Source: Campylobacterales bacterium (lineage in GTDB: Bacteria; Campylobacterota; Campylobacteria; Campylobacterales; Campylobacteraceae). From it: a stretch of DNA of 64,000 nucleotides. Location of the stretch: contig JACUTV010000001.1 in NCBI GenBank assembly GCA_014859645.1, positions 33,823-97,822 of the forward strand. The letters run 5' to 3'. The stretch's first letter is position 1, and the number at the start of each line of letters is the position of its first letter. Positions 2,774 to 64,000 of the stretch are shown here, piece by piece. The position numbers and the translations under genes were made by a program. The notes beneath the pieces were generated by a model that made no database searches, was not told where the DNA came from, and saw nothing but the letters and a program-made list of their open reading frames with translations.

Positions 2774-3976
2774 TTGAACCACGACATCAGGAGGTTTTTG
2801 GTTTCCAAATACCTCCGCTTTGACAAGAGCCAACCTTTTATTTCCATCAGTGCCTTTTTGGCCTTTTTTGGTGTGGCAATTGGCGTGATGGTCTTGCTTG
2901 TCGCTATGGCTATCATGAACGGGTTTGACAAAGAATTTCAGCGCAAACTTTTTACCATGAATTATCCCCTCACTGTGACAACCTTTATGCCTGGAGGCGT
3001 ACATGTAAAGGATGTGGAGGCGATTTTGGAAAAAATGCCCCACCTAAAAGCTAGCCCCTACATCTCTTCTCAAGTTATGTTGCGCCGTGGCCAAAAACTT
3101 GAAGGCGCCCTTGTGTTTGGGGTAGACATGGAAAAAGAGAAGCAGATTAATTCCGTTGTTGCCGAGGGACTTGGCGAAGTGGTGCTTGAAGAGTTTGAAC
3201 TGCTGGCGGGCAAGGGAATTGTGGATGAGTTTTTACTAGAAGCTGATGAGCGGTTGATGGTGTTGTTTACCCATGCAGAACCTGGTGGGCTTGCTTTGAT
3301 GCCAAAAATGAAGCGTTTTACCCACAAAGCCACCTTTCAATCAGGGCTTTTGGCTTACGATAAAACCTACATGTACACGCCTGTTAGTTCTCTTCAAAAG
3401 ATACTTGGGTACACCGAGGGTACGTATGATGGGGTGCATTTGTACTCTAAAGACCCCTTTAAAGACATCGAAATTCTTTCAGGGATTTTGCCTTCCCACT
3501 TGCGCGCCATTGGGTGGTGGCAACAAAATGGTAACTTTTTTTCCGCGCTTGCCTTGGAAAAACGGGCGTTGTTTATTGTATTGATGCTTATTATTTTGGT
3601 TGCTTCGTTGAATATCATCAGTTCTTTGCTTATGACCGTCATGAACCGCCGTCAAGAGATTGCATTGTTGCTTTCCTTGGGGGTTTACAAGCGGGAAATC
3701 AAACACACTTTTTTTATCTTGGGTATTGTGATTGGCGGGAGCGGTGTGTTGCTTGGGGTGTGCTTGGGCGGCCTTGGAATTTGGCTTTTGGGCTCTTTTG
3801 ACATCATCAATCTTCCCGCAGACGTGTACGGTTCGGCGAGGCTTCCACTGGAACTTTCCTTGCAAGATTTTTGGTTAATCGTGCTTGGAGCGAGTGGTGT
3901 CGTGGCTTTTTCGTCTTATTACCCTGCTAAAAAAGCAACCGAGGTGAATGTTTTAGAAACCTTACGCAACGAGTAA
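2774..3976 (+). CDS. LolC/LolE-family lipoprotein-releasing ABC transporter permease (FtsX-like)
   Basis: 400-aa ORF with TTG start 6 nt after AAGGA; N-terminal RYL-like motif (SKYLRF), TM helix then MNGF, large periplasmic loop, three C-terminal TM helices. Confidence 0.8.
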   Translation: MNHDIRRFLVSKYLRFDKSQPFISISAFLAFFGVAIGVMVLLVAMAIMNGFDKEFQRKLFTMNYPLTVTTFMPGGVHVKDVEAILEKMPHLKASPYISSQVMLRRGQKLEGALVFGVDMEKEKQINSVVAEGLGEVVLEEFELLAGKGIVDEFLLEADERLMVLFTHAEPGGLALMPKMKRFTHKATFQSGLLAYDKTYMYTPVSSLQKILGYTEGTYDGVHLYSKDPFKDIEILSGILPSHLRAIGWWQQNGNFFSALALEKRALFIVLMLIILVASLNIISSLLMTVMNRRQEIALLLSLGVYKREIKHTFFILGIVIGGSGVLLGVCLGGLGIWLLGSFDIINLPADVYGSARLPLELSLQDFWLIVLGASGVVAFSSYYPAKKATEVNVLETLRNE

Positions 3977-3977
3977 G

Positions 3978-5756
3978 TTAGAGTATTTTTTCTAAGGCCT
4001 CAAGAGGGAGGGGTTTGCTGAACAGATACCCTTGAAAGACGTGACATCCTGCGCGTTTTAAGAAGGTAAATTGCTCTTTAGTTTCCACTCCTTCGGCAAC
4101 GACGCGAAGACCAAGGTTTTTAGCCATGCCAACGATGGTGTGGATAATGACGGCTTCGTCGGTGTGATGTTTAATATCCTGAGTGAAGCTTTGGTCGATT
4201 TTAAGTTCATCTAAAGGGATTTTTTTGATGGCACTTAGGGAAGAATACCCTGTCCCAAAATCATCAATAGAAAAGCGTATGCCCATGCTTTTAATCTGAT
4301 GCATTTTGGAGACCATAGCATCCACATCCCCCATAAACAATGTCTCAGTAATTTCAAAAATCAACTTCTCTTTGGGGCATTTGGTGGCTTCTAAAATCCT
4401 TTCTATGGTGGCTATAAAGGCTTCACTTTGGAGTTGTTTGATGCTTAGGTTAACGGCAATGGTCAACGAGGATGTTTTTTCATCAAGCGACCAACGGGCC
4501 AGTTGAAGGCAGGCGGTTTTAATCACCCAAGCACCTAGCGGAATAATAAGTCCATTTTCTTCTGCTAACGGGATGAATTCGCTAGGAGGAATGAATCCTT
4601 GTTCGAGATGATGCCAACGGATAAGGGCTTCAAGGGCAATGATTTTTTGCGTCGCATCGACCTTGGGTTGGTAATAAAGTTCTAATGCATTCTTTTTGAG
4701 GGCGCGCCTTAGGCTAGTTTCGATGGAGACTTTGTGCTTAATGGCTTCTTGCATTTTTGGGTCATAAAAACGAATAGTGTTTCTTCCTGAATTTTTAGCC
4801 TCGTACATGGCGATTTCTGCTTGCTTGATGACATCGCCTGTTTGCCCTTTTCGAAAAATCACTACGCCGATAGATGAGGAGCACAGGTGGGTTGTATGCC
4901 CTAAGGAAATGGGTTGGTTAATGCTTGTTTTAAGGGTATAGGCAAAAGATTCAACAATAGAGATAGTCTGAGAAAGCTCTACATGTAACGATTCCATGAG
5001 CACAATGAATTCATCTCCGCCAAAGCGGCACAAAAAATCTCCTCGTGAGAGTAAGTCCCCCAGTCGTCTGGCAAGCTCTTTTAGAAAAACATCTCCTTGA
5101 TTGTGCCCTTCTGTATCGTTGAGTTCCTTGAAGTGGTCGAGGTCAATAAGTAAAAGTGCGGAATATTTGCATCCTTCAAGGTACTGGCATGAAGCGCCAC
5201 AATTTTGCCCTTTGGAGCAAGATTGTTTCAAACCAAAAAGGCGTTCGTTGAGCATGTTTTTATTGGGAAGATGGGTGAGTGGGTCGTAGTTTCCAAGCCG
5301 ATGGATTTCCTCTTCCGCCTCTTTGCGTTTGGTGATATCAGTTCCAAAAAGAACAACATAGGGCACATGGCGAAACAAGATGATTTGAAGGGTGAATTCA
5401 ATAGGTGTTTTTTTGATTTGAGTTTCTAGGGTTAGCGCGTCATGATACTTTGCTTCTTCAAAAAGGTAGGCGATTTTGTTAGTAATACATGCTGGAAAAA
5501 CGCTTTCGTAAGTGCTTCCAAGCATCTTTTCTTTGGGGAGTTTGTAAAAGGAGCTGGCAGTTTGATTGACATCCATCAAGCAACCATCCAGTCCAAGAAA
5601 AATCATCTCTTTGGACTGGTCTAAAAGCGCACGGAAACGTTCCAGTTCATCAAACTGTTCTTGCAAGGACGTGTAGTAATGTTTTCGGATGGAATGCTCT
5701 CCGAGTCCGATAATCTTTTCCCTGAGGGATTCGGACGTTTCAGAAAGCTTTTTCAT
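3978..5756 (-). CDS. PAS-GGDEF-EAL c-di-GMP turnover protein
   Basis: ORF 3978..5768; GGDEF motif RFGGDEFIVLM and EAL motif ALEALIRW present; start moved to ATG 5756 (MKKLSETS), which overlaps the upstream adh 3-prime end. Confidence 0.85.
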   Translation of the reverse strand: MKKLSETSESLREKIIGLGEHSIRKHYYTSLQEQFDELERFRALLDQSKEMIFLGLDGCLMDVNQTASSFYKLPKEKMLGSTYESVFPACITNKIAYLFEEAKYHDALTLETQIKKTPIEFTLQIILFRHVPYVVLFGTDITKRKEAEEEIHRLGNYDPLTHLPNKNMLNERLFGLKQSCSKGQNCGASCQYLEGCKYSALLLIDLDHFKELNDTEGHNQGDVFLKELARRLGDLLSRGDFLCRFGGDEFIVLMESLHVELSQTISIVESFAYTLKTSINQPISLGHTTHLCSSSIGVVIFRKGQTGDVIKQAEIAMYEAKNSGRNTIRFYDPKMQEAIKHKVSIETSLRRALKKNALELYYQPKVDATQKIIALEALIRWHHLEQGFIPPSEFIPLAEENGLIIPLGAWVIKTACLQLARWSLDEKTSSLTIAVNLSIKQLQSEAFIATIERILEATKCPKEKLIFEITETLFMGDVDAMVSKMHQIKSMGIRFSIDDFGTGYSSLSAIKKIPLDELKIDQSFTQDIKHHTDEAVIIHTIVGMAKNLGLRVVAEGVETKEQFTFLKRAGCHVFQGYLFSKPLPLEALEKIL

Positions 5757-7446: not shown

Positions 7447-8697
7447 TTATTGTACACTATTTTCAATCAATGCTTCGAGTTTTTCAAAATAAAACACATT
7501 GTAGCCATTTTGATGACGGTAGGTGAGGGTAAGGGCGTGTGCTTTGATGATGTTATCAACAATATAAAGCCCAAGCCCTAGGCTTTTAGTGCTGTTGGCT
7601 CCTTGCACAAAAGGTTCAAGGTAGTGTTCAAACGGATGTTCAAGGGGGTCACCTAAGCTAATGAAGCGAATACTGCTACTATCGGCTACCACTTTGACAC
7701 GTTTCTCTTTGGAGTACTTAATGCCATTATCAATCATATTTTTAAGGGCGATGGAAAAGAGTTTAAAGTCTACATGTAAGATGATTTCTTCTGAGATATT
7801 GCGTTGGACGCTTTCGGGTTCTGCCATGGCTAAATCCATCGCTTCATCAATCAAATCCACCAAACGATACCCCGTAACGTCGCTTAGGCCAATACCAGAC
7901 GTGATGCGTTCGATGGAGGCGAATTCGTTAATAAGGGTTTCGAGTTTTTCAAAAACAGTAATGAGTCTTGTTTTGTACTTTTCTTGAGTAACCATTTCCG
8001 CGGTAATTCTTCCTTTGGTAATGGGTGTTTTGAGTTCATGCATGATGTTGCGCAAGAAAAGCTGACGCGATTGGTTGAGGGCCTTGATTTGGCCTACGGC
8101 GTTGTAGAAGGCGAGGGCGACTTCGGAGATTTCATCGCTTCCCGTGCTGTTACATGTAACCTCTTCCAAGTCCCCTCTGGCAAACTTATCGATTTCTTGT
8201 TTGAGTTTGCGCAAGGGTTTGAGTTTGCGAATGGTGAAAATATACGTAGCCAACAAAATCAAAAAAACACTAGCAAAGATAATGCGAATCACATCGTAGC
8301 GGTAGGGTTGGTAATCTTCATCTTTCAAGAGTAAGATAGTGTTGTTGTGAGTGATTTTGAGGTAATGGTTTTTGTTGTAAATGAGAATGGAGCTGTTGCC
8401 AATTTTGGCTTGGATTTCTTCGATAACTTGTGCATTTTCGATAATGGCTTGTTTTTCTTCTGCGTCGCTAATCTCGGTCATTTTAAAGTCATTTACCTGA
8501 GCCTCAAGCTCTTCGTTGGTGATAAAATTGTTTAGATGAAACAAGGTAGCTCTTGCAACGATAGAGTATTTGGTATTGAGTTCGCTGGTGTAGTTTTGCT
8601 TGTCGTACTCCATGAGCCACAAAAAAGCCAAAAAAATACTCGCCGTGGAGAGAAAAAAGATAAAGGTAATACTGTAAAAGATAGAAGAGCGAATCAT
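7447..8697 (-). CDS. cprS: Sensor histidine kinase (CprS-like)
   Basis: 416 aa; two TM helices flanking a periplasmic loop, H-box MHELKTPITKGR, G2 box LGLGLYIV; 4-nt overlap with the upstream regulator; htrA-cprR-cprS order as in Campylobacter jejuni. Confidence 0.75.
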   Translation of the reverse strand: MIRSSIFYSITFIFFLSTASIFLAFLWLMEYDKQNYTSELNTKYSIVARATLFHLNNFITNEELEAQVNDFKMTEISDAEEKQAIIENAQVIEEIQAKIGNSSILIYNKNHYLKITHNNTILLLKDEDYQPYRYDVIRIIFASVFLILLATYIFTIRKLKPLRKLKQEIDKFARGDLEEVTCNSTGSDEISEVALAFYNAVGQIKALNQSRQLFLRNIMHELKTPITKGRITAEMVTQEKYKTRLITVFEKLETLINEFASIERITSGIGLSDVTGYRLVDLIDEAMDLAMAEPESVQRNISEEIILHVDFKLFSIALKNMIDNGIKYSKEKRVKVVADSSSIRFISLGDPLEHPFEHYLEPFVQGANSTKSLGLGLYIVDNIIKAHALTLTYRHQNGYNVFYFEKLEALIENSVQ

Positions 8698-10855: not shown

Positions 10856-10870
10856 CCTTTACATGTAAGG
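10856..10870. repeat. Palindromic motif copy CCTTTACATGTAAGG
   Basis: Exact TTACATGTAA core; on the minus strand its AAAGGA arm is the htrA SD. Confidence 0.9.
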
Positions 10871-11012: not shown

Positions 11013-11027
11013 GGCTTACATGTAAGG
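11013..11027. repeat. Palindromic motif copy GGCTTACATGTAAGG
   Basis: Exact core; htrA/cbpA divergent spacer. Confidence 0.9.
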
Positions 11028-15429: not shown

Positions 15430-16179
15430 ATGTGGGCAAATAAAGAACTAGAAATCCTCTACCGTGATGAGCATCTTGTAGCGGTCAATAAGCCTAGTGG
15501 GCTACTCGTGCACAAGTCGATGATTGACCGCCATGAGCGATTTTTCGCCATGCAAATGGTGCGTGACCAACTAGGCCAACATGTGTTTCCTGTGCATCGG
15601 CTCGATAAGCCCACTTCTGGGGTGTTGCTTTTTGCCCTTGACGCGGCCACCGCAAGAGCTCTTGGGGAACAATTCATGGAGCACCATCCTCAAAAAACCT
15701 ACCTTGCCATCGTGCGTGGTTTTGTGAACGAAGCGGGAGTTGTGGACTATCCTTTGCGAGAAAAGTTGGACAAAATCGCCGACAAACACGCGCGCCAAGA
15801 CAAAGAAGCCCAAGAAGCCATCACGGCGTTTGCGCCTTTGGCAAGGGTGGAGCTTGCCCACGCAGTAGGAGGCTTTCAAACGGTGCGGTATTCGCTAGTG
15901 GAGCTAAACCCTCAAACGGGCAGAAAACACCAATTGCGCCGTCACATGAAGCACCTTTCACACCCCATCTTAGGGGACACAAAATACGGACGCGGCGAAC
16001 ACAACCAGTTCGCAAGGGAACATTACGGATGCCACCGCTTGTTGTTGCATGCGTCACATTTGACTTTCACACATCCTTATACTAACGAGACGCTTTTGGT
16101 GCGCGCTGGAGTGGATGGGATGTTCCAAAAAGTGTGTGAGATGAACGGTTGGCACGAGGTGCTAGAGCCTTACATGTAA
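15430..16179 (+). CDS. truC: RluA-family tRNA pseudouridine synthase (TruC-like)
   Basis: LEILYRDEHLVAVNKPSGLLVH and HRLDKPTSG motifs; start set at ATG 15430, 5 nt after GGAG; its stop codon lies inside a TTACATGTAA copy. Confidence 0.8.
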   Translation: MWANKELEILYRDEHLVAVNKPSGLLVHKSMIDRHERFFAMQMVRDQLGQHVFPVHRLDKPTSGVLLFALDAATARALGEQFMEHHPQKTYLAIVRGFVNEAGVVDYPLREKLDKIADKHARQDKEAQEAITAFAPLARVELAHAVGGFQTVRYSLVELNPQTGRKHQLRRHMKHLSHPILGDTKYGRGEHNQFAREHYGCHRLLLHASHLTFTHPYTNETLLVRAGVDGMFQKVCEMNGWHEVLEPYM

Positions 16180-16225: not shown

Positions 16226-16239
16226 CCTTACATGTAAGG
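16226..16239. repeat. Palindromic motif copy CCTTACATGTAAGG
   Basis: Perfect 14-mer, 1 nt from the cysK stop. Confidence 0.9.
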
Positions 16240-20390: not shown

Positions 20391-21287
20391 GTGCTTGAAT
20401 TGGTAGAAAAAACGATGAGGGAAATCGTCGCTTCGTTGGACGATGCGCGGGTGTGTTCTTTGTACGAAGGTGTTCCTAGCGGAAAACGGCTTCGGGCGAA
20501 GTTGATTTTAAAAATTGCCAGTACCCACCCTGATGCGGTGAAATTAGCGGCCATTGTGGAGCTGATTCATGCGGCAAGTTTGTTGCACGATGATGTGATT
20601 GATGATGCACTCACGCGACGCGGGGTGGATTCTATCAACGCACGTTTTGGCAACAAAACCGCCATTATGCTAGGCGACATCCTGTACTCCAAAGGCTTTT
20701 TTGAGCTTTGTGCTCTTCCTTCTTCAGTCGCCCAGACCATCTCCAATGCAGTTGCCTTACTAAGCCTTGGCGAACTCCAAGACGTGGAACTTGCTCAACG
20801 TTTTCACCATGACAAAGCAACGTACGACCAGATGATTTACAACAAAACTGCTTCGCTCATTGAGGCAAGTGCTAAAGCGGCGGCACAGCTTGTGGGAAAA
20901 CCTTGGGAACCTTTTGCAACGTATGGGAGAAACTTGGGACTGGCGTTTCAGATTGTGGATGACATTTTGGACATCACACAAGACAGCCAAACCTTGGGAA
21001 AACCTGCGTTGAATGATTTTGCTGAGGGCAAAACAACCTTGCCATATCTTTACATGTATGAAGCGTTAAATACGGAAGATAAGGCCATGCTTCTTTCGCT
21101 TTTTGGCGTGGTGCTGTCTCCTTCGCAAGCAGCGTGGATTCACGAAAAAATGCACACCTCAGGCGCACTTTCGCGGTCTATCGCACACGCAAAACGCCTA
21201 GGAAAAGAAGCCCTTGATGCCATCGGTGAAACAGGGGTAGAAGGTTTGGATAAGGTTGTAATTCAGATGATTGAAAGAGAGTTCTGA
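20391..21287 (+). CDS. ispB: Long-chain polyprenyl diphosphate synthase (IspB-like)
   Basis: GTG start; two aspartate-rich motifs, LLHDDVIDD and FQIVDDILD. Confidence 0.88.
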   Translation: MLELVEKTMREIVASLDDARVCSLYEGVPSGKRLRAKLILKIASTHPDAVKLAAIVELIHAASLLHDDVIDDALTRRGVDSINARFGNKTAIMLGDILYSKGFFELCALPSSVAQTISNAVALLSLGELQDVELAQRFHHDKATYDQMIYNKTASLIEASAKAAAQLVGKPWEPFATYGRNLGLAFQIVDDILDITQDSQTLGKPALNDFAEGKTTLPYLYMYEALNTEDKAMLLSLFGVVLSPSQAAWIHEKMHTSGALSRSIAHAKRLGKEALDAIGETGVEGLDKVVIQMIEREF

Positions 21288-22591
21288 TGCATTATATGAC
21301 GATGAGCTTCACGCACAAAAACACCGATATTGGGATTCGCGAACAACTTTCTTTTGCCTCGCAAGAGAAATTACGTGATATGTTATGTCGCATTGTTGTT
21401 CACGCCAGTGTGAATGAAGCCATCATTCTTTCTACATGTAACCGCGTTGAAATCATCACGAGCGTCAAGGAGTGCAAAGAGGCGTTAGCGCACATCACAA
21501 GCAAGTTAGTAGAAGTATGCAAGGTGAACCCAGAGGACATTCTTGGACGCGCGGACGTGTACGAGGACAATGGTGCCATTCATCACCTTTTTGCCGTCGT
21601 TTCCTCTCTTGATAGCCTTGTTATCGGAGAAACCCAGATTGTAGGGCAGCTTAAAGACGCGTACCGTTTTGCCTATGAGGGCGGTTTTTGTGGCTTGAAG
21701 CTCAGTCGCGCTATGCACCATGCTTTTCGCTGTGCCGCGTTGGTGCGTAGCCAAACTAGTATTTCCCAAAGTCCCATTTCTGTTTCTAGTGTGGCTGTTT
21801 CCAAGGCTGAGGAGATTGCGGGGTCGCTAGAAGGAAAAGAAGTCCTTGTAATTGGGGCGGGCGAGATGAGCACGTTGGCGGTGAAACATTTGTTGGCACA
21901 CAAGGCCAAAGTCGTGCTCATCAACCGTACTCCTGCGAATGCCTACGCCCTTGCGGCGAGCGTGGAAGGGGAAGTGCGGGTGGATGATTTTTCTTTTTTA
22001 GGCGAATACGTCAACCGTTTTTCGTTCATCTTTTCCGCCACAGGGGCTTCTAGGCCTATTGTCACAGACGCAATGCTTACGTATCAAGAGCATCCGCGCT
22101 ATTTTTTTGATATTGCGGTGCCTAGAGACATCGAGCTTTCCCCGCGTGCGAATGTACACGTTTTTGCGGTGGATGATTTGAAAGAAATCGTTTCGCGCAA
22201 CGTCTCCCTTCGGGAGGAACAAGCACAGGTGGCGTATGGTATTGTGGGGCGTTCGACCATTGAGTTTTTTAGGTGGCTACAAACCCTTAGTGTAGACCCT
22301 ATCATCAAAGAAATCCGCGAAAAAGCCAAAGCTTGTGCCATGCTAGAAGTGAGCAAGGCGGCAAAAAAAGGGTACATTCCTAAAGAAAGCGAAGAAGCGG
22401 TGATGCGCGTGGTGCATCAAGTCTTTAACGCGTTTTTGCACCGTCCTACTAAAAATCTCAAAGCCATTGCCGAACAACCAGAATCAGATACCATCGTCCA
22501 AGCGATTCAGTACTTTTTTGACATCAACGAAGAAGAAGACAAACAACTCGACCAATACCAATGCAACCACCAAATGGAGAAACATGCATGA
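21287..22591 (+). CDS. hemA: Glutamyl-tRNA reductase
   Basis: 434 aa; active-site STCNRVE motif; NADPH Rossmann motif VIGAGEMS. Confidence 0.92.
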
Positions 22592-24714: not shown

Positions 24715-25665
24715 ATGAAAAACATTATTATCGCCACCCGTGGAAGCCAACTGGCCTTATGGCAAGCTGAACACATCAAAGCCTTACTGATGGAACGGTA
24801 TCCTTCTTTACATGTAACGCTTAACATCATTAAAACAAAAGGCGATAAGATTTTAGATACGCCGCTGGCCAAGATCGGTGGCAAAGGGCTTTTTACCAAA
24901 GAGTTGGAAGAAGAGATGTTACGTGGCAATGCACACTTAGCAGTGCACAGCCTTAAAGACGTGCCCGCAGAATTTCCCGAAGGCTTGGCCCTTGTGGCAC
25001 TCACCAAGCGCGAAGACCCGCGTGACGCGATGCTCTCAGAACACTACGCCTCACTTGACGCCTTGCCTCAAGGTGCGGTCGTGGGTACCACCAGTTTGCG
25101 CCGTCGAATGCAACTGTTGGCCAAGCGTCCTGATTTGGTTATTAATAACTTGCGTGGGAATGTAAATACGCGCATTCGCAAACTTAAAGAGGGAGAATTT
25201 GACGCGATTATCTTAGCAACGGCGGGCATTGTGCGCTTGGGGCTTCAAGAGGAAGTGCGCTATTTTGCGCCTATCGAAAAAACGTGGATGATTCCTGCAA
25301 GCGGCCAAGCGGCTTTAGGCATCGAAAGCGTGGACACACCAGAACTTCGCGAAATGTTAGCCTTTTTAAACGACGACGAAGCCATCATCGAGACAACCAT
25401 TGAGCGGGATTTTGTGCGCATCTTAGAAGGGGGATGCCAAGTGCCCATCGGCGTCAATGCAACCTTGGAAAAAGACCATATACATGTAAAGGCTATGGTA
25501 GGTTTGCCAGATGCTAGCCAAATCCTCGAAGAAAGCCTTACATGTAAGAGGGAAGAGTACGCTACAGTGGGCAAAATCCTAGCCAAACGCATGGGCGAGC
25601 GCGGGGCACACGAGTTGCTTAAAAAAGCTGAAATCATGGCAATGACTGTCATTTTTAACGACTAG
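24715..25665 (+). CDS. hemC: Porphobilinogen deaminase (hydroxymethylbilane synthase)
   Basis: [21 protein letters not shown]-terminus; start set at ATG 24715. Confidence 0.93.
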
Positions 25666-29472: not shown

Positions 29473-29498
29473 TTTGCCAAAGAATGCATTTTGGAAAA

Positions 29499-29513
29499 CC
29501 TTACATGTAAAGG
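29499..29513. repeat. Palindromic motif copy CCTTACATGTAAAGG
   Basis: In the leader of the TetR-hydrogenase operon; its AAAGGA arm is 10 nt upstream of GTG 29525. Confidence 0.9.
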
Positions 29514-44402: not shown

Positions 44403-45397
44403 AACGGATTCAACTCTCCCAAGGCGGGGGTGGCGAAGAGACAACAGGACTGATTAAAGGCCTATTTTTCAAGCACTTTAGCAATGAAATTTTAGAAAAA
44501 ATGGAAGACGCGGCTACCTTACATGTAAAGGGTCTCATCGCCTTTACGACCGACTCTTTTACCGTTACTCCGCTTTTTTTTGAAGGGGGAAATATCGGCA
44601 AGCTAGCCATCGCTGGCACGGTCAACGACCTCGTGATGGCAGGGGCGAAACCGATGTATTTGACCTGTTCGTTCATGATAGAAGAGGGATTTTTGGTGGA
44701 AGAGCTTGAAACCATCGTCATTAGCATGAAAGAAGAGATGGCCAAAAGCGGGGTAAAGATTGTCGCAGGCGATACAAAAGTCGTGCCAAAGGGGGGTGTT
44801 GATGGGCTGTTTATTAACACCACTGGCATCGGTGAAATCGTGTGTGAGGGGATTTCAGCGCACAACCTAAGGCCTGGTCACGCGCTCATTGTTTCCAACG
44901 AAGTGGGCAACCACGGAGCGTGCATTTTAGCCAAACGGGAAGAGTTGGACTTGGAGATGAAACTCAAAACCGACTGTGCCTCCTTGTGGAGTCCTGTGGA
45001 AGCGTTGTTTGCTGCGGGTATCAAGCCCTTGGCGTTGCGCGATGCCACCAGGGGCGGGCTTTCAGCAGTACTTAACGAATGGGTAGAAGCGTCTCAGGTG
45101 GGACTTGCCATTAAAGAAGCGGCAATTCCTGTGGCGCAAGAAGTCAAGGGCATTTGCGAACTCTTGGGGTTTGAGCCTTACGAATTTGCCAATGAGGGCA
45201 CCATGGTGCTGTGCGTAGAAGCAGACGATGTGGAAAAAACCTTGGCCGTGTTACATCGGTTCGAAGAAACCCAAAAAGCACGCCATATTGGCACGGTAGT
45301 GGATGAACATGTAGGAAAAGTGGTGCTTGAAACCCCCTGGGGAAGCCACCGATTTTTAGAGCCTCCTAAGGGCGAGCTTCTTCCAAGGATTTGCTAA
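44399..45397 (+). CDS. hypE: Hydrogenase maturation protein HypE
   Basis: AIR-synthase-like fold; C-terminal PRIC motif. Confidence 0.94.
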   Translation: MKRIQLSQGGGGEETTGLIKGLFFKHFSNEILEKMEDAATLHVKGLIAFTTDSFTVTPLFFEGGNIGKLAIAGTVNDLVMAGAKPMYLTCSFMIEEGFLVEELETIVISMKEEMAKSGVKIVAGDTKVVPKGGVDGLFINTTGIGEIVCEGISAHNLRPGHALIVSNEVGNHGACILAKREELDLEMKLKTDCASLWSPVEALFAAGIKPLALRDATRGGLSAVLNEWVEASQVGLAIKEAAIPVAQEVKGICELLGFEPYEFANEGTMVLCVEADDVEKTLAVLHRFEETQKARHIGTVVDEHVGKVVLETPWGSHRFLEPPKGELLPRIC

Positions 45398-46885: not shown

Positions 46886-49388
46886 AAGGCAACTGCAAGG
46901 TGCGTTTAAGGATGTTATAAGGCGTCAAGAAGGTATCTTGCAAGAGATGGGTTGTGACCTCAGGGTTTTCTAATTTTCCGTGAAGTGTGATGGCGGTTGC
47001 AATGCTTTGGTCGTCCCCTAAAACCAAATGGTTCAGGAGGGGAATTTGGCTGATGGCATTGCTAATGTCTTTGAAGGTTTTGAGCTTGAGGTCTACATGT
47101 AAGGTGTCATCTTGAAGATTCACCACACCTTCGCCCACAATGTCCGCACTCGTTCCCTCAAGGTAAATAGCATGCAAGGTTAACACCTCTTCTTTTTGGC
47201 TAAAAACAATGTTCCCTTCTTTGATTTCATACCCACGTTCATTAAATCCAGGCCCTTTAAACAGTGCGAGGGAAGGGATTGTATTAATAAGTGCAATGAG
47301 ATTGTTGTACGCAACCATCTCTTTAAGATAGCTTTCGTGAATACTGAGCGTGCCAGAAAAAAATGTTGGATTTTCTCCTTTTAGTGTCAGTTCAAACACC
47401 CCTCCATCAAACATCTCTTTTTTGGCAAAATGGTTCATGAGTGTGGCGTCGGCACCAACAAGAGAGAGGTCAAGAGCAGTTGGCGTTTGAAAAAGCGTTA
47501 CATTCCCTTGCTCAAATGCGCCCACAAGATGTGTTTCTTTGGGAGAGGTTTTGAGTGTGTAGGTTGTGAAGGGGAGGGTTTGGTTTTGGTCAAGCAAAAG
47601 CAGGTGGCTGTTTTTGCCATGAATGGTTGTCGGTGTTTGACCTTGGGGGGAAGAGGGGGTGCCATCTAGTCCAATATCCAAGTTTTCCAAGAAAATCTCA
47701 CGCCCGCTTGCGGTTTGGTGCAATGAAAATCCTTCGGTGCTAGCTAGGGTTTTGGTGGCGTCTGCGTGTATTATAAAATGTGCCGTCTCAAGAGGACGCC
47801 CATCGCGGTAGAGTAAGGAATTTAGCTCAGTGATGTCTAAATCCACCGCGTAGGTTTTAAAATCAGGTGTGATGATGGTTGTCTTGCCTTTTAAAAATCC
47901 ATTTTCTTGCAACAACGAAGAGTGGGGGTATAGTAAGTCAAGGCGCGCAAGGGCGATGCGGTTTTCGTGCTCCCCAAAACGCAAAGAAGTGGCAAGCTTG
48001 GGGATGGAGATAAGCACATCAGGAGTGGAAAAATCCAAACGCAATGGCGAAGAAACCTTTGAAAGAGAGATAATATTTTCCCCTTGGTGCGCTACATGTA
48101 AGCGCTCAATCATCCCTTGACCCTCAAAGGTTCCTTCCGTGGTTTCAATAACCCCTGAGGCCACAAGGTCAAGGATATCTTCGTAGCGCAAATGGGCATC
48201 TCGAAGGGTTAATGTTGTGTTTTCAAGTCCAATGGTCGCTTCTCGTGAGTAAAAAGGCACGCCTGCGATGCGTATATTGGCATCATGAAGCAAGAAAGTA
48301 CCTTTGGCTTTAAGGCTGTAAGGCAAGAAGCGAATGTCAAGCTCTAATGTGCCATCGGTTATGCCACTGGTTTGAGAGAGCGGAATGGCAATCCCATAAG
48401 CTTGTAAGATGCGATGAATACGCGCATCAAGCTGTGTTTTTGTTTTTAGGGTAACAACAATGCCATTTTTTTCCGTCAAAAGATTGTAGATATAGACTTC
48501 CGATCGGCCTATGTCGATGCCTTCGTATGAGGCGGTGTCGATATGAAAAATGAGTTGATTATTGGAAAGTTCCACACTAAGGTTTTCGATGAGCGCAGGG
48601 GGCAGAGTGGGTTCAAAGGTGACTTTGACATCCTTGCCTCGCGCGAAGCCTTTCATCTCGTAAGGGAAGAAATCCCCGCTTAAAAGGTCGATTTTTCCTT
48701 CAAGAGAGTCGATTTGATACGCACTGGCAACAATCTTTTGATAAATCCATTCGCCTATCTCTTTTTCTAAGTTTACAGCAGTGCTCAACGCTTCCATGAA
48801 AGGTTCAAGGGTTTCAAAAGAGGTGGTTTGGGCCACATAAGAAAGAAGCATATCTTCAAGCTTTAGCGCAACACTTCCCGAGATGCCGTGTGTCGTGAAA
48901 TTTCCTTGAAAAAATCCTGCTTGCGTCAGGATGTCGAGGTCTAGACTCCCCTGGAGTTCGAGGTTAAAATCCTTTAAAAGCAGCTTTTTAATCCCTATGG
49001 CCGCCCCGCGCTCTAGGGGATTGAGCGTGGCGTCGATGGTGACATAATTGGAGTCTAAGTAAAACATATCGTGGTGATAGCGAAGGACGATATGTTCGTC
49101 CTCGTAGCGAAGATTTTCGATGTTGATAGAGTAAAAAAGGCGGTCCATCCACGGCAAATACTTCAAAATAGCAACGATTTCTTCCCGCGAATTTTCCTGC
49201 GAAGAGGCTTTATTGAGGCGCACTTCTTGTGCGCTTACAATCAGTTTTTTATGTAGCTTTATGTACAATTGATCGACATAAACCCCTCCTATCGAGAGAG
49301 AACTAATCCGAATCCCGTAAAAGAGAGTTGTTAGGAACGCGATGCAGAGAATAAAAAGTACTAAAATAGGCGTCCAAATTTTTTTCAT
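46869..49388 (-). CDS. Large membrane-anchored AsmA/YhdP-like protein
   Basis: About 840 aa; single N-terminal TM helix, then a long beta-rich periplasmic region. Start is uncertain (ATG 49388 or 49412; neither has a good SD). Confidence 0.5.
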   Translation of the reverse strand: MKKIWTPILVLFILCIAFLTTLFYGIRISSLSIGGVYVDQLYIKLHKKLIVSAQEVRLNKASSQENSREEIVAILKYLPWMDRLFYSINIENLRYEDEHIVLRYHHDMFYLDSNYVTIDATLNPLERGAAIGIKKLLLKDFNLELQGSLDLDILTQAGFFQGNFTTHGISGSVALKLEDMLLSYVAQTTSFETLEPFMEALSTAVNLEKEIGEWIYQKIVASAYQIDSLEGKIDLLSGDFFPYEMKGFARGKDVKVTFEPTLPPALIENLSVELSNNQLIFHIDTASYEGIDIGRSEVYIYNLLTEKNGIVVTLKTKTQLDARIHRILQAYGIAIPLSQTSGITDGTLELDIRFLPYSLKAKGTFLLHDANIRIAGVPFYSREATIGLENTTLTLRDAHLRYEDILDLVASGVIETTEGTFEGQGMIERLHVAHQGENIISLSKVSSPLRLDFSTPDVLISIPKLATSLRFGEHENRIALARLDLLYPHSSLLQENGFLKGKTTIITPDFKTYAVDLDITELNSLLYRDGRPLETAHFIIHADATKTLASTEGFSLHQTASGREIFLENLDIGLDGTPSSPQGQTPTTIHGKNSHLLLLDQNQTLPFTTYTLKTSPKETHLVGAFEQGNVTLFQTPTALDLSLVGADATLMNHFAKKEMFDGGVFELTLKGENPTFFSGTLSIHESYLKEMVAYNNLIALINTIPSLALFKGPGFNERGYEIKEGNIVFSQKEEVLTLHAIYLEGTSADIVGEGVVNLQDDTLHVDLKLKTFKDISNAISQIPLLNHLVLGDDQSIATAITLHGKLENPEVTTHLLQDTFLTPYNILKRTLQLPFKIFD

Positions 49389-50307: not shown

Positions 50308-50336
50308 CCTTTACATGTAAGCCTTACATGTAAAGG
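50308..50336. repeat. Two back-to-back motif copies forming a 29-bp palindrome
   Basis: CCTTTACATGTAAG-C-CTTACATGTAAAGG, 6 nt after the mltG stop. Confidence 0.9.
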
Positions 50337-50367: not shown

Positions 50368-52638
<2,271 letters not shown>

Positions 52639-52646: not shown

Positions 52647-53582
52647 ATGAGCAAGGTAGCCATTATTGGAGCGGGTAATGTAGGGGCAAGTATCGCCAGT
52701 ATGCTTGCATTTAATCAGCTATGTAGGGATGTTGTTTTGTACGACATCGCCAAGGAAGTAGCGCAAGGAAAAGCCTACGATATCGCCCAGGCCGCTTCCA
52801 TTACGCACTCAAGTACGGCCGTACATGTAGCACAAGATATGGATGCCTTACAGGGAGCTTCTGTGGTAGTAATTACCGCAGGAAGTCCGCGAAAGCCAGG
52901 GATGAGTCGCGAGGATTTGTTGTTTAAAAATGCTTCGATTATGAAGTCCCTTTGCCTTGACATCAAACGCGTAGCGCCAGAATCCATCATCATTGTGGTT
53001 TCAAACCCTTTAGATGCCATGGTGTATGTGGCCTTGCAGCACACAGGATTTCCGCGGGAGCGGGTCGTTGGTATGGCGGGAGTACTAGACAGCGCAAGGA
53101 TGGCGCATGCTATCACTGAAGCGGCAGGTTTTGGCGAGGGGCAAGTTGAAGCACTTGTGATAGGAGGCCATGGTGACGCCATGGTTCCTCTCCCCCGTTT
53201 TTCAACGCTCAAAGGAGTGCCTATTGCGGATATATTGAGTGAAGAAGCACTCACTGGAGTCGTGAAAACAACCCAAGCAGGAGGGGCTAGGATTGTCTCT
53301 TTGATGGGAACCTCTGCTTACTACGCCCCTGCAGCGGCTGTGTGCGCTATGGTAGAGTCAATTCTTAAAGACTTAAACCGATTGATGCCTTGTGCGTATT
53401 TATTGGAAGGCGAATACGGATACTCCGATATTGTAACCGGTGTCGTGGTTGCTCTAGGACGTCAAGGGGTCAGCTCTCACCTTGCATTGCCGCTAAATAC
53501 CCAAGAGCGCAATGCCCTAAAAGAGAGTGTTCAAGAGGTTGCCGCGCAGATTATGTTACTAAATTCCCACTCCCTTTGTTAA
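52647..53582 (+). CDS. mdh: Malate dehydrogenase (LDH-like family)
   Basis: 311 aa; IIGAGNVGAS Rossmann motif; NPLD and GGHGD motifs. Confidence 0.9.
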   Translation: MSKVAIIGAGNVGASIASMLAFNQLCRDVVLYDIAKEVAQGKAYDIAQAASITHSSTAVHVAQDMDALQGASVVVITAGSPRKPGMSREDLLFKNASIMKSLCLDIKRVAPESIIIVVSNPLDAMVYVALQHTGFPRERVVGMAGVLDSARMAHAITEAAGFGEGQVEALVIGGHGDAMVPLPRFSTLKGVPIADILSEEALTGVVKTTQAGGARIVSLMGTSAYYAPAAAVCAMVESILKDLNRLMPCAYLLEGEYGYSDIVTGVVVALGRQGVSSHLALPLNTQERNALKESVQEVAAQIMLLNSHSLC

Positions 53583-58737: not shown

Positions 58738-58755
58738 CCCTTACATGTAAAGGGG
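58738..58755. repeat. Palindromic motif copy CCCTTACATGTAAAGGGG
   Basis: Begins immediately after the oorC stop codon. Confidence 0.9.
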
Positions 58756-58770: not shown

Positions 58771-59366
58771 AATTCTAAAAAATTTTTAATTCCCGTAAAC
58801 ACAATCTGCGCAGCCAGAGCGGCAAGTACAAGCCCTGTAATCTTACTGAGTACCGTCAAGCCATTTTTTCCAACCACACGTTCAATCGCACCTGAAAAAT
58901 AGAGCATCACGCCCACGCTTCCCACGGCTAAAATAAGCGCAAAAAGTCCTTGTAGAGTTTGATGTACCCCTTCCATGCCCGCACCCATCACAAGCAAAGC
59001 ACCAATGGTACCTGGCCCGATAGTGATAGGAATCGCCAAAGGCACAACTGCAATGGAGTTTACCTCTTTGGGAAGCGCATCGGTTTTTGGCCCTTGGATG
59101 AGTGAAACGGCAGTTAAGAAAAGTAGTGCCCCCGCCCCAATGCGAAAGGCGTCTAGGGTGATACCAAAAAGGTCAAAAATATAATTTCCGAAAAAAAGTA
59201 AAATGGTACATGCAAAAATCACCGAAGCGCTTACATGTAAAGCAAGCTTCTTTTTTGCAACACTACTTTCTTCTTTGGTCATCACTAAAAACATCGAAAG
59301 TACAAAAAACGGGGTCATTAAAAAGAAAAATTTAATGTATACCGAGACAATAAACGACCAATCCAC
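58767..59366 (-). CDS. MarC-family integral membrane protein
   Basis: Six TM helices. Start set at GTG 59366, 5 nt after AAAGGAG, with a TATAAT box at 59394..59399; the ORF track extends to 59441. Confidence 0.75.
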   Translation of the reverse strand: MDWSFIVSVYIKFFFLMTPFFVLSMFLVMTKEESSVAKKKLALHVSASVIFACTILLFFGNYIFDLFGITLDAFRIGAGALLFLTAVSLIQGPKTDALPKEVNSIAVVPLAIPITIGPGTIGALLVMGAGMEGVHQTLQGLFALILAVGSVGVMLYFSGAIERVVGKNGLTVLSKITGLVLAALAAQIVFTGIKNFLEL

Positions 59367-60609: not shown

Positions 60610-60621
60610 CGCCCCAACGCA

Positions 60622-60633
60622 TTACATGTAAGG
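60622..60633. repeat. Palindromic motif copy TTACATGTAAGG
   Basis: 12 nt after an extended -10 box; its AAGGA arm is the SD for ATG 60641. Confidence 0.85.
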
Positions 60634-60640: not shown

Positions 60641-61249
60641 ATGAACGCAGACACAAAAGTGATGCACTACTTGTTAGAAATACTCGCCAAATGTGAAGAG
60701 AGCGAAACCAAAGCGTTGCACCAAGCAGTGCTTGAAGCCCTTGATAAAGAAGCGTTGTGCAGCAAAACACGCTTTACATGTAAGCAAATCAAAGCCCTTT
60801 TAAAAGCAGATGGGGCGGTGGAACTTACAGGAACTAACCAAGCTCTTTCCTTGTTAGCACGCTACCGCAATCAAGCACTTCCTGAGGAGTTAAAACTCAA
60901 GCGACAGCACTTGATTCACACCCTCTTGGGGGCAAATTTTCCCCAAAAACAACATTTTTTAAGTACTTCCCTTCAGGCTTTTGAGAGCGAGCTTTCGCCG
61001 GTGGAAGCGAAAATGTACGGGTTGATTCGCTTGTATCTTTCTTCTATTAGTGAAGCTATTGAATTGTTTGTTTTGTTTGACACGCGTAAAGAAGCCTCTT
61101 TTGAAGCGGCGAGTGGGTATGTGCTTGGGTTACACAAACACCTGAATGAAACGTTGTTTTACAAAGAAGAGCGTTTGTTAGTGGAAGAGGGGTTAGGAAA
61201 AATGAGTGTTATTCTTTTGGGTGTGTATTACCAGCACCTTTACATGTAA
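60641..61249 (+). CDS. Hypothetical helical protein
   Basis: 202 aa; extended -10 promoter and AAGGA SD upstream; stop codon embedded in a TTACATGTAA copy; no family recognised. Confidence 0.55.
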   Translation: MNADTKVMHYLLEILAKCEESETKALHQAVLEALDKEALCSKTRFTCKQIKALLKADGAVELTGTNQALSLLARYRNQALPEELKLKRQHLIHTLLGANFPQKQHFLSTSLQAFESELSPVEAKMYGLIRLYLSSISEAIELFVLFDTRKEASFEAASGYVLGLHKHLNETLFYKEERLLVEEGLGKMSVILLGVYYQHLYM

Positions 61250-63435: not shown

Positions 63436-63445
63436 TTACATGTAA
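63436..63445. repeat. Palindromic motif copy TTACATGTAA
   Basis: Exact core between the yggS terminator and the GGDEF gene start. Confidence 0.85.
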
Positions 63446-63448: not shown

Positions 63449-63481
63449 TAAAAGAAAGGAGTGAGAAGGGTTTTCTCACTC
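63449..63481 (-). terminator. Rho-independent terminator of yggS
   Basis: 9-bp stem GAGTGAGAA/TTCTCACTC with a 5-nt loop, followed on the minus strand by CUUUCUUUU; an A-tract on the other side makes it potentially bidirectional. Confidence 0.6.
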
Positions 63482-63497
63482 AAAAAAAAGAGGGGTA

Positions 63498-64000
63498 TTA
63501 GCTAAATAAAACGCCTCCAAGACGAAGCATATTGGAACCACAACGTACGGCGAGTTCAAAATCGTTGCTCATACCCATGGAACAAACTTTTGCTCCGTGT
63601 TTGTGTAAAGACTCATAAAGACGATAGGTAGTTTCAAAACTGTCTTGGATAATAGTCGTATCCTCGGTATGGGCTCCGATACTCATGAGCCCACGAAGCT
63701 GAAGATTGGGGCAGGTTTCTTGGATGGCTAGATAGGTCTCCACAGCCATTTCTGGCAAAACACCCGCCTTGGACTCTTCTTTGGCACTGTTGACTTGCAA
63801 TAAAACAGGAAGAGTTTTTTCCTTTACATGTAAGCGTTTATCTAACTCCATCGCCAAGGCCAAAGAGTCGCACGAATGCACAAGGAAGGGGTTAAGGTCA
63901 ATAAGCTGATTAATCTTATTTTTTTGCAACCTCCCGATAAAATGCCACTCAATGGGTAAGGTGGACAATGCCACGTTTTTGCGTGAAAGTTCTTGCACCT
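63498..64000 (-). CDS. yggS: YggS-family pyridoxal-phosphate homeostasis protein (partial; N-terminus beyond the window)
   Basis: GRLQKNK, MSIGAH and GMSNDFELAV motifs; the ORF runs off the window end. Confidence 0.85.
   Translation of the reverse strand, partial: VQELSRKNVALSTLPIEWHFIGRLQKNKINQLIDLNPFLVHSCDSLALAMELDKRLHVKEKTLPVLLQVNSAKEESKAGVLPEMAVETYLAIQETCPNLQLRGLMSIGAHTEDTTIIQDSFETTYRLYESLHKHGAKVCSMGMSNDFELAVRCGSNMLRLGGVLFS

Follow-up and report, generated by a model that had tools for sequence, protein, structure and literature searches.

The palindromic octamer TACATGTA is a short genome-wide DNA tag, and neither a mobile element nor a gene-level signal, in a Campylobacterales bacterium of which we analyzed a 64-kb stretch (contig JACUTV010000001.1 of GenBank assembly GCA_014859645.1, positions 33,823 to 97,822 of the forward strand), called the window hereafter. 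In its usual form, C-Y-T(1-2)-TACATGTA-A(1-2)-R-G, the motif is very likely a selected tag of the highly iterated palindrome (HIP) type, and methylation of its central CATG is rather probably part of that tag. By analogy with other systems, the tag may function in natural transformation or recombination, although we hold this only tentatively. For the whole chain, in which a HIP-type element with methylated CATG serves self-recognition in transformation or recombination, our rough probability is 0.4.

Abundance and form of the motif

Exact searches of the window found 43 copies of TACATGTA, versus 0.44 expected from dinucleotide-preserving shuffles, and 27 copies of the 10-mer TTACATGTAA, versus 0.08 expected by the same method, an excess of about 100-fold for the former and more than 300-fold for the latter. 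Counted on both strands, the 86 octamers compare with expectations of 1.8 and 5.3 under order-3 and order-4 Markov models, respectively, and TACATGTA ranks first by frequency among the 8-mers of the window. The excess thus persists under higher-order models, a check that had been named beforehand. A sequence-only reading of the same DNA had counted 27 copies of TTACATGTAA, 43 of TACATGTA, and about 54 of ACATGT, 43 of them inside the octamer, and exact search reproduced all of these figures. Its positions are right as well, save that a copy placed at 63834 was mistyped and starts at 63824; the excess that it described is genuine, but its estimate of 30-fold for the octamer was too low.

The constrained unit is the full octamer. 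ACATGT occurs 54 times in the window, with 15.3 expected from dinucleotide shuffles, and 43 of these copies fall within TACATGTA. The other 11 show no enrichment when set against a total expectation of roughly 15 to 20, which disagrees with the earlier suggestion of a footprint centered on ACATGT. Similarly, only about one-eighth of the 359 CATG sites in the window (46.1% G+C) lie in the enriched TA-CATG-TA context. One-mismatch variants of TACATGTA occur at or below Markov expectation in 507 kb of related DNA (ratios of 0.55 to 1.33), and so recognition is all-or-none over 8 bp.

Around this core, aligned copies carry a symmetric, softer flank (C, C/T, one or two T, TACATGTA, one or two A, A/G, G), in agreement with the flank bias noticed in the sequence-only reading. 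Perfect palindromic arms measure 4 to 7 bp in 42 of the 43 copies, and the symmetric flanks reach 14 to 16 bp. The commonest combination in the window is one short and one long T/A run, with TTTACATGTAAA being absent, and 15-mer forms with unequal runs display no strand bias (7 versus 6). Once selection bias was allowed for, other genomes gave no significant support for an asymmetric extended motif, which we treat as a lineage dialect. An oriented motif of the Chi or FtsK-orienting polar sequence (KOPS) type was also rejected because the palindrome reads the same on both strands. Spacing between copies in the window is not distinguishable from random (coefficient of variation of 0.91; P = 0.33 for regularity), with four pairs lying less than 60 bp apart (P = 0.08).

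Selection on the DNA sequence

Copies of the motif arise by point substitution where coding permits, mostly as L-H-V, T-C, or Y-M. Codon-by-codon alignment with motif-free orthologues revealed that motif sites in genes differ from them by substitutions, with no indels, which rules out an origin by insertion for the copies in genes; a few intergenic copies correspond to apparent 8-bp gaps relative to other genomes, in alignments that are unreliable. For instance, ProS reads Y-L-H-V-D in the window and its four nearest relatives, versus F-F-K-V-D in about 35 other Campylobacterota, and the motif codons of HemC put histidine in place of glutamate or lysine. In HemA (S-T-C-N) and a polyprenyl synthetase (L-Y-M-Y), the motif is created through synonymous codons, where motif-free lineages use other codons, or leucine for methionine. 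Moreover, all 18 L-H-V tripeptides in window genes are encoded as TTACATGTA (TTA-CAT-GTA), compared with about 1% expected from codon usage (TTA, 14%; CAT, 47%; GTA, 17%), and the peptides themselves are in excess (18 versus 4.6 expected for L-H-V; 6 versus 0.3 expected for L-H-V-K). The target of selection is the DNA sequence, not the protein.

Strong selection at the DNA level preserves copies once they exist. This was evident from pairwise BLAST comparisons of DNA around proS from metagenomes and assemblies. Relative to the window, locus L319 (82% nucleotide identity) keeps 11 of 14 sites, L320 (77%) keeps 13 of 14, and L131 (72%) keeps all five, with arbitrary 8-mers being kept at 8% in the last pair. 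Within Sulfurospirillum, sites are kept at seven of seven between L106 and L112 (78% identity; arbitrary 8-mers, 16%) and at seven of nine between L139 and L106 (83% identity; arbitrary 8-mers, 25%). These three pairs supplied the control figures, by which L319 and L320 were judged as comparable pairs. Across the comparisons, orthologous copies are kept at 60 to 100%, versus 8 to 25% for control octamers. All 11 sites of L319 and all 13 of L320 are common to the window at 18 to 23% nucleotide divergence, and neither lineage gained sites of its own there. Within the motif, third codon positions were identical in 28 of 28, 15 of 15, and 27 of 31 cases, against backgrounds of 54%, 44%, and 62%, respectively, and copies between genes preserve the core even as the surrounding flanks diverge and vary in length. 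Conservation tests of the same kind were used by Xu et al. to argue for selection on HIP1.

The trait is also patchy, having been lost completely in some close relatives, even within one genus. The 21.7-kb locus of Sulfurospirillum deleyianum DSM 6946 has 12 sites, and a sister locus of equal length, L139, has 21. There are none in the 21.7 kb of L122, whose ProS falls in the Sulfurospirillum diekertiae cluster; its orthologous octamers carry two to four substitutions, and ACATGT is its most under-represented palindrome (1 versus 7.2 expected). L101 and L102, the nearest named-clade relatives of the window (by ProS, a cluster of Campylobacterales/Sulfurospirillaceae metagenome-assembled genomes [MAGs]), likewise have no sites.

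Distribution across Campylobacterota

The abundance of TACATGTA is a clade property of many Sulfurospirillaceae and Sulfurimonadaceae and is not confined to the window. When GTDB, with each species represented by one genome, was scanned for the 15-mer CCTTACATGTAAAGG, at least 99 loci matched. Among the matches listed, 71 of 99 belong to Campylobacterota (Sulfurospirillum, Sulfurospirillaceae, Sulfurimonadaceae, Sulfuricurvum, and related MAGs), and these loci, comprising 507 kb with G+C contents from 30 to 58%, hold 0.55 further TACATGTA copies per kb, versus 0.01 per kb in the 28 loci from other phyla. By genome, densities are mostly 0.5 to 1.1 sites per kb irrespective of G+C content (31 to 54%), figures that come from a sample of scattered loci, not a census, in more than 20 genomes of Sulfurospirillaceae and Sulfurimonadaceae. 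Such densities confirm a likeness, drawn in the sequence-only reading, to the DNA uptake sequence (DUS) of Neisseria, the uptake signal sequence (USS) of Pasteurellaceae, and HIP1.

Lineages differ in the flanks that they add to the core. The S. deleyianum group prefers long T/A runs on both sides, (C)TTT-TACATGTA-AAA(G), and the window prefers CC(T)T-TACATGTA-A(A)GG. ProS similarity places the window in an undescribed lineage close to Sulfurospirillum; named matches are 70 to 76% identical, and relatives at 92 to 96% identity were found only in unannotated run assemblies.

The full-text library that we searched for the 8-mer and the 10-mer, alone or together with taxon names, has no account of this motif in Campylobacterota, as the sequence-only reading had also believed. 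Since the HIP literature treats the phenomenon as cyanobacterial, the novelty would lie in a HIP-type element in a second phylum, with a different core.

Two contigs filed as viral, L253 (IMGVR_UViG_2558860208_000001) and L202, carry the motif at host-like density (7 copies in 11.9 kb and 6 in 12.2 kb, respectively). The former has genes for a TnpB-like transposase and a secretin-like protein, and its phage nature is not clear. Two scans of viral contigs found a few with host-like density, and we base no conclusion on them.

CATG methylation in relatives and a probable methyltransferase

Published methylomes place N6-methyladenine (m6A) at CATG in relatives of the window genome. In the supplement of Blow et al. 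(2016), M.Sba3II of Sulfurospirillum barnesii SES-3 is a type II enzyme that makes m6A at CATG, with 99.1% of sites modified and no partner endonuclease listed, and M.SdeAIII of Sulfurimonas denitrificans likewise makes m6A at CATG. By extension from these relatives, CATG would be methylated in the window genome too.

D12-class adenine methyltransferases of 335 to 338 amino acids, with no endonuclease neighbor, are encoded at the motif-rich loci L058 (Sulfurospirillum cavolei) and L057 (a Sulfuricurvum MAG), and homologues of the L058 enzyme are 63 to 68% identical across Sulfurospirillum, Sulfurimonas, and Arcobacter. We fetched seven further genomic contexts of this gene. Six are cassettes in which the D12 gene comes last, after a second N6/N4 methyltransferase gene and an unassigned gene; five of these cassettes include a PF05315 (IceA) gene, and five include a small helix-turn-helix (HTH) gene. 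In the seventh, L325 (Sulfurospirillum sp. Kmv13), the D12 gene stands alone between housekeeping genes. In Helicobacter pylori, IceA1 is an NlaIII-like CATG endonuclease, and the adjacent hpyIM is a CATG methyltransferase. Because of the adjoining IceA-type genes, the D12 family is very probably CATG specific.

Motif density differs between these contexts. The loci with an IceA-type cassette (L324, L329, L330, L331, L332, and L326) have 0, 0, 0, 0, 0.14, and 0.19 sites per kb, respectively, versus 0.48, 0.50, and 0.25 in those with no endonuclease neighbor (L325, L057, and L058); this comparison covers nine loci, and two of the three endonuclease-free cases (L057 and L058) come from a motif-selected sample. 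CATG is depleted at cassette loci (22/46, 50/82, and 33/102), four of which have 0 to 1 ACATGT versus 4 to 7 expected. Elhai described an association of HIPs with orphan methyltransferases, which is the pattern seen here. There is support, albeit indirect and by way of relatives, for the idea that the CATG core of TACATGTA is m6A methylated by an NlaIII/hpyIM-type methyltransferase that lost its endonuclease. A link to CATG/ACATGT methylation, suspected in the sequence-only reading, gains ground from the published m6A-CATG methylomes of Sulfurospirillum and Sulfurimonas and from the methyltransferases of this type that lack a nuclease neighbor in motif-rich genomes.

The cassette is of interest in its own right. 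In its five-gene form (L329, 7072-11005; L330, 7416-11014; L326, 7653-11014; L331, 7462-11020; L332, 7662-11005), the order is N6/N4 methyltransferase, a 205- to 416-amino-acid protein without a Pfam match, IceA-domain protein, small HTH protein, and D12 methyltransferase; L331 has no IceA match, and L330 has no HTH gene. It sits at varied housekeeping sites, such as between dxr and tsaD. Also, S. cavolei (L058, 7273-7974) encodes a second, shorter D12-class open reading frame (ORF) of 233 amino acids, about 1 kb from its full-length endonuclease-free D12 gene, that matches only the C-terminal two-thirds of the profile.

A proposed mechanism and the points against it

We propose that a chromosomal D12 methyltransferase of the NlaIII/hpyIM type, its IceA-type endonuclease having been lost, would methylate both central adenines of CATG. 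Given that such an enzyme acts on the 4-bp CATG and that about one-eighth of CATG sites stand in the enriched context, a separate reader must be postulated. This putative reader, presumably a dimer, would recognize the 8-bp site and mark DNA as self or kin when cells take it up or recombine it during natural transformation. Alleles with the tag would then be incorporated in preference to others, which could both have driven its density up to about one per 1.5 kb and keep sites intact, and lineages that have an active CATG endonuclease, or that have lost the reader, would purge it. A still more specific history, in which TACATGTA became the methylated tag by which free-living Sulfurospirillaceae and Sulfurimonadaceae recognize kin DNA in natural transformation when an NlaIII/IceA-type CATG restriction-modification system shed its endonuclease and its methyltransferase was co-opted, we consider doubtful at present.

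Several points weigh against the proposal. A CATG enzyme would methylate all 359 CATG sites of the window and cannot alone explain the enrichment of TA-CATG-TA. Neither a methyltransferase gene nor a competence gene lies within the 64 kb of the window, the methylation presumed for its genome is that of relatives, and natural transformation of Sulfurospirillum and Sulfurimonas is likewise presumed. Classical uptake sequences are nonpalindromic, with many one-mismatch relatives, whereas TACATGTA is palindromic and all-or-none. Finally, the link between methyltransferase context and density comes from the nine loci with the partly motif-selected sample mentioned above, and two of the cassette-bearing loci retain 0.14 to 0.19 sites per kb.

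Alternative explanations

Elhai proposed for HIP1 a mechanism of methylation-linked repair or gene-conversion bias, in which an enzyme at the methylated site perfects near-matches and the motif performs no service to the cell. For TACATGTA, such a by-product would agree with the association with endonuclease-free CATG methyltransferases, with a motif that overrides protein conservation, and with an all-or-none core whose one-mismatch variants fall slightly under expectation, as if near-misses had been converted. Nevertheless, the sites are old and stable in position, with every L319 and L320 site shared with the window, and Xu et al. used the argument from positional stability to favor selection for HIP1. 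A 4-bp methylation site also leaves the 8-bp specificity unexplained. Furthermore, the methylation reported in relatives is of N6-adenine, which creates no T:G deamination mismatches, the substrate of Vsr-type repair. The footprint of Vsr-type repair of deaminated bases that the sequence-only reading offered as one possibility is, therefore, a poor fit, the mark being m6A and not 5-methylcytosine (m5C) and the sites being positionally conserved. To our knowledge, H. pylori and Campylobacter jejuni lack MutL/MutH-type mismatch repair, which we count against a repair by-product, although this concerns those two species and not the present clade. We judge this explanation improbable, if still worth weighing.

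The motif might instead bind an abundant dimeric protein that organizes or maintains the chromosome (through the nucleoid, or coupled to replication or repair) independently of transformation. A perfect 8-bp palindrome with symmetric softer flanks to 14 to 16 bp is what a homodimer would be expected to recognize, conservation at the DNA level is strong in genic and intergenic sites alike, and Xu et al. favored a chromosome-structure role for HIP1. However, spacing in the window is random, and whole clades of one genus have no copies and avoid ACATGT, which fits a dispensable exchange function better. We know of no candidate protein for such a role. This possibility, too, seems to us distinctly unlikely, and on a par with a repair by-product.

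It is very improbable that the motif is primarily a gene-expression signal, whether terminator hairpin, ribosome-binding site, stop codon, promoter element, or regulator operator. A crude ORF model divides the 43 sites into 9 that are intergenic (2.6 kb in total; 3.4 per kb) and 34 within ORFs (0.55 per kb), and so intergenic density is about six times that of ORFs. Two copies supply TAA stop codons (at 16171 and 61241), and at least three stand in 5' leaders (10860, 29502, and 60623) with an AAGG(A) flank where a ribosome-binding site is expected. One copy, which ends a pseudouridine synthase gene, is the center of a perfect 26-bp palindrome, CTAGAGCCTTACATGTAAGGCTCTAG (16162-16187). On the other hand, about 80% of copies are intragenic, in genes on both strands and in all three reading frames. 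A second ORF assignment, in which one probably spurious ORF of 73 amino acids was kept, put 35 sites in ORFs, of which 22 read (L/V/I)-H-V, 9 read T-C, and 4 read Y-M followed by Y or a stop. None of 29 terminator-like sites in the part of the window from 44 to 64 kb overlaps a copy, Rfam has no match in the window, and the stem is just 4 to 7 bp in all copies save one. A transcription factor regulon was dismissed on the same grounds, the sites being mostly intragenic and not concentrated at promoters. We regard the stop-codon, leader, and other gene-level uses as secondary, an abundant sequence having probably been co-opted for them.

Remnants or target sites of mobile elements, such as miniature inverted-repeat transposable elements (MITEs), repetitive extragenic palindromes (REPs) with their RAYT transposases, or IS200/IS605 elements, of which the last insert beside TTAC, are a still weaker explanation, and one that we give almost no credence. 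Many palindromic copies would suit such elements, and in an accessory region of L139 (17.7 to 21.7 kb), copies do sit inside longer repeated modules. In the window, however, a repeat search found that all motif-containing families stop at 14 to 19 nucleotides, with no alignment between copies farther out and no longer repeat unit; genic copies align codon for codon with motif-free orthologues, and most copies are genic, whereas REPs and MITEs are extragenic. The sequence-only reading had excluded MITE and insertion sequence (IS) remnants, and rightly so. The accessory region itself (L139, 17600-21671) consists of small ORFs with 12 motif copies in 3.8 kb, several of them located between the arms of a long inverted repeat that itself recurs (GGGGACAGGCTACTTT ... 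AAAGTAGCCTGTCCCC) and others in a duplicated module of about 150 nucleotides, with two copies 65 to 68 nucleotides apart.

Lastly, an artefact of composition, codon usage, or amino acid content, to which the shared (L/V/I)-H-V reading of 22 of 35 ORF sites might point, can be set aside, as 86 copies on both strands compare with 1 to 5 expected under Markov models of orders 1 to 4, the codons TTA, CAT, and GTA are not preferred and yet encode every L-H-V, and the excess spans 31 to 54% G+C and intergenic DNA.

Individual copies and their surroundings

The window is ordinary core genome (secA, htrA, hemA, proS, hemC, ubiD, icd, mdh, sucCD, and oorDABC), and it also holds two NiFe hydrogenases with hyp genes. 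All 43 copies are given in Table 1.

Table 1. Copies of the motif in the window. Coordinates are the span of TACATGTA or TTACATGTAA; (-), minus strand.
Span	Sequence	Gene or site	Reading	Remarks
3000..3007	TACATGTA (TACATGTAA)	ftsX-like ORF	V-H-V	
3368..3375	TACATGTA	ftsX-like ORF	Y-M-Y	
4980..4987	TACATGTA	GGDEF-EAL gene (-)	L-H-V	
7771..7778	TACATGTA	histidine kinase gene (-)	L-H-V	
8150..8159	TTACATGTAA	histidine kinase gene (-)	V-T-C-N	
10859..10868	TTACATGTAA	intergenic, immediately 5' of htrA start		AAGGA flank at expected ribosome-binding site position
11016..11025	TTACATGTAA	intergenic, htrA/dnaJ-like gene		kept in L320
12987..12994	TACATGTA	Na+/H+ exchanger gene	L-H-V	kept in L319
15256..15265	TTACATGTAA	divergent intergenic		14-bp palindrome CCTTACATGTAAGG; core kept in L319 and L320, flanks differ
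16170..16179	TTACATGTAA	end of pseudouridine synthase gene		gives TAA stop (16171); center of perfect 26-bp palindrome
16228..16237	TTACATGTAA (CCTTACATGTAAGG)	convergent intergenic		deleted in L319 and L320
18981..18990	TTACATGTAA	intergenic		kept in L319 and L320; flanking T-run length varies
21051..21058	TACATGTA	polyprenyl synthetase gene	L-Y-M-Y	common to 12 motif-rich relatives; L-Y-L-Y in motif-free lineages
21433..21440	TACATGTA	hemA	S-T-C-N	conserved residues; created by synonymous codon choice
23396..23403	TACATGTA	proS	Y-L-H-V-D	F-F-K-V-D in ~35 other Campylobacterota; common to L131, L132, L319, L320
24808..24817	TTACATGTAA	hemC	L-H-V	relatives L-E-V or L-K-V
25481..25488	TACATGTA	hemC	I-H-V-K	motif on same codons in S. 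deleyianum-type genomes
25538..25547	TTACATGTAA	hemC	L-T-C-K	motif at same position in 7 distant relatives
25945..25954	TTACATGTAA	ubiD	L-H-V-K	relatives L-H-M-K
29501..29510	TTACATGTAA	probable 5' leader of tetR-family gene		AAGGA flank at expected ribosome-binding site; in L319, called start 23 nt downstream of start of equivalent motif
30160..30169	TTACATGTAA	NiFe hydrogenase small subunit gene	L-T-C-N	
34702..34709	TACATGTA	NiFe hydrogenase large subunit gene	V-T-C-I	
37206..37215	TTACATGTAA	ORF 36975-38648 (no Pfam match)	L-H-V-K	
37464..37473	TTACATGTAA	ORF 36975-38648	L-H-V-K	
37507..37516	TTACATGTAA	ORF 36975-38648	L-T-C-K	43 nt after copy at 37464
39594..39603	TTACATGTAA	hypF	L-H-V-R	followed by T run
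40585..40594	TTACATGTAA	hypF	F-T-C-K	
41230..41237	TACATGTA	nikR	V-H-V	
44519..44528	TTACATGTAA	hypE-like gene	L-H-V-K	motif at same position in Sulfurimonadaceae locus L042
46692..46699	TACATGTA	HAD hydrolase gene	L-H-V	
47094..47101	TACATGTA	YhdP-like gene (-)	L-H-V	
48093..48100	TACATGTA	YhdP-like gene (-)	L-H-V	
50311..50320	TTACATGTAA	intergenic, yceG-like gene/icd		first of pair 13 bp apart
50324..50333	TTACATGTAA	intergenic, yceG-like gene/icd		second of pair
51437..51444	TACATGTA	isocitrate dehydrogenase gene	L-H-V	
52822..52829	TACATGTA	malate dehydrogenase gene	V-H-V	
58741..58750	TTACATGTAA	intergenic		5 nt past stop of POR/OOR gamma-subunit gene
59231..59240	TTACATGTAA	marC-family gene (-)	L-H-V	
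60622..60631	TTACATGTAA	just downstream of TG-TATAAT promoter-like site (60582-60609)		AAGGA flank at expected ribosome-binding site of ORF starting 60641
60774..60783	TTACATGTAA	ORF 60641-61249	F-T-C-K	
61240..61249	TTACATGTAA	end of ORF 60641-61249		gives TAA stop (61241)
63436..63445	TTACATGTAA	intergenic		
63824..63833	TTACATGTAA	alanine racemase-fold gene (-)	L-H-V-K	

Other features of the window were observed along the way. A 25-nucleotide family, TGTGTTACAAT(C/T)GCCCCAAAAAATG, occurs at 124-148, 29462-29486, 50000-50024, 60599-60623, and 63920-63944, upstream of secA, the tetR-family gene, and others, and it resembles an extended -10 promoter (TGnTAcAAT) with a conserved stretch downstream. 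Within the hydrogenase (hyd/hyp) cluster, the ORF at 36975-38648, which has three motif copies, encodes 557 amino acids. At the start of a hypB-like (CobW/HypB) gene, 42238-42338 is an imperfect tandem repeat rich in CAC, GAC, and CAT codons, probably encoding a histidine-rich metal-binding stretch.

Several palindromes are avoided in the window, namely, CATATG (0 versus 13.9 expected), CTCGAG (0 versus 7.2), AGATCT (1 versus 16.4), GGATCC (1 versus 11.7), TGATCA (3 versus 23.7), and CCGG (14 versus 183), a pattern that suggests many restriction systems in the genome. A link between the motif and CATATG avoidance was considered and dropped, as the correlation fails across genomes.

Comparison with known systems

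In the iceA1-hpyIM system of H. pylori and in NlaIII, CATG specificity matches both the core of TACATGTA and the published methylomes, and the D12 family of motif-rich genomes is 63 to 68% identical to homologues beside PF05315 (IceA) genes. Restriction normally leads to site avoidance, however, whereas motif-rich genomes are without the endonuclease and their 8-bp superset of the site is hugely enriched. Restriction-site avoidance was therefore rejected as a description of the motif in the window, where the opposite is seen; ACATGT/CATG avoidance is found only in sister lineages. REPs, the bacterial interspersed mosaic elements (BIMEs) related to them, and MITEs are also short palindromic repeats of high copy number, but they are 20 to 150 nucleotides long, extragenic, and spread by transposition, in contrast to 8 to 16 nucleotides, mostly genic positions, and an origin by substitution here.

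The USS of Pasteurellaceae and the DUS of Neisseriaceae resemble TACATGTA in occurring about once per kb, at tolerant genic positions and with intergenic enrichment, in being common to related genera with lineage-specific flank dialects, and in keeping orthologous positions. Unlike the perfectly palindromic core of TACATGTA, they are oriented, nonpalindromic 9- to 12-mers, and they have many one-mismatch copies, versus ratios of 0.55 to 1.33 here. Also, they often form terminators as inverted pairs, which is not the case here, and are methylation independent, which TACATGTA presumably is not.

The closest likeness is to HIP1 (GCGATCGC) and the alternate HIPs. These are perfect 8-bp palindromes, with an excess of 15- to 300-fold and a density of about one per kb, that occur in genes in all frames and between genes; their orthologous copies are kept beyond control octamers and codon conservation; and they are clade-wide, with exceptional lineages that lack them. 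The same features recur here, where an octamer palindrome with at least a 15-fold excess (about 100-fold in the window) is found in all frames and in noncoding DNA and is conserved beyond controls. HIPs contain the target of orphan DNA methyltransferases, as TACATGTA would too, judging from relatives, and for both, function has candidates only. TACATGTA is not HIP1 proper, since sequence and phylum differ, the present motif being A+T rich with a CATG core. Here, m6A alone and an NlaIII/hpyIM-type enzyme are implied, whereas HIP1 has m5C at CGATCG plus Dam methylation. One-off variants of HIP1 are enriched and conserved and deviate mostly at the outer bases, but those of TACATGTA are not enriched. 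Additionally, TACATGTA has flanks with T/A runs that vary by lineage, and its presence or absence switches inside a single genus. A long-range periodic spacing of 10 to 90 kb has been reported for HIP1; the local spacing of TACATGTA is random over 64 kb.

HIP1 has been known for some 30 years, and research is only now closing in on what it does. In Synechococcus PCC 7002, natural transformation rises as much as 60- to 100-fold with methylated HIP1 sites, and HIP1 has been put forward as an uptake sequence in a 2026 preprint. If a HIP-type element exists independently in a second phylum, the phenomenon is not peculiar to cyanobacteria. Moreover, the sharp contrast among cultured species of one genus, in which S. 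deleyianum is rich in the motif and the S. diekertiae clade is free of it, is absent in cyanobacteria, and so comparative genomics could pinpoint both the reader and the methyltransferase. The associated iceA-hpyIM/NlaIII methyltransferase family is well studied in Helicobacter, which makes the system unusually tractable. The tag may help to explain how gene exchange is channeled among abundant sulfur-cycling Campylobacterota, and methylated copies in donor DNA might render these hard-to-engineer bacteria transformable, as for HIP1.

Within the phylum itself, RAATTY, methylated by the orphan enzyme CtsM, is an experimentally shown DNA uptake tag of C. jejuni. Like TACATGTA, it is a hyper-abundant palindromic motif, and its m6A comes from an orphan methyltransferase, as would that presumed for TACATGTA from relatives. 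It shows that a methylated palindrome can act as a self-recognition signal for DNA uptake. It differs in being a degenerate 6-mer found every 60 to 115 bp, versus a strict 8-mer every 1.5 kb or so, and in that the methylation site itself is the tag, whereas about one-eighth of CATG sites here stand in the enriched context. In Campylobacter-like loci that the proS search also yielded (L133 and L134, from an oral metagenome, and L126), AAATTT is the top over-represented word (6-fold; 319 versus 52 expected in 36.7 kb), RAATTY accounts for 95% of AATT, and there is almost no TAATTA or CAATTG; read from these word counts, the AAATTT excess is the genomic signature of the CtsM/RAATTY uptake tag. 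A homology of TACATGTA with Campylobacter TAAATTTA through the TA flanks was considered and dropped, as flanks beyond RAATTY are just mildly T biased. Separately, L126 (OLGZ01000063.1; 21.7 kb) and L127, from a Campylobacter-like metagenome, display an extreme purge of several short palindromes together, with no CATG (about 70 expected), no ACGT (39 expected), and no AGCGCT, AGGCCT, ATTAAT, or CAATTG.

If TACATGTA did become a kin-recognition tag through co-option of a restriction-modification methyltransferase, HIP1, RAATTY, and TACATGTA would be three cases of one route, along which restriction-modification systems become methylated self-tags that steer gene exchange, and such tags would be gained and purged repeatedly, even inside one genus.

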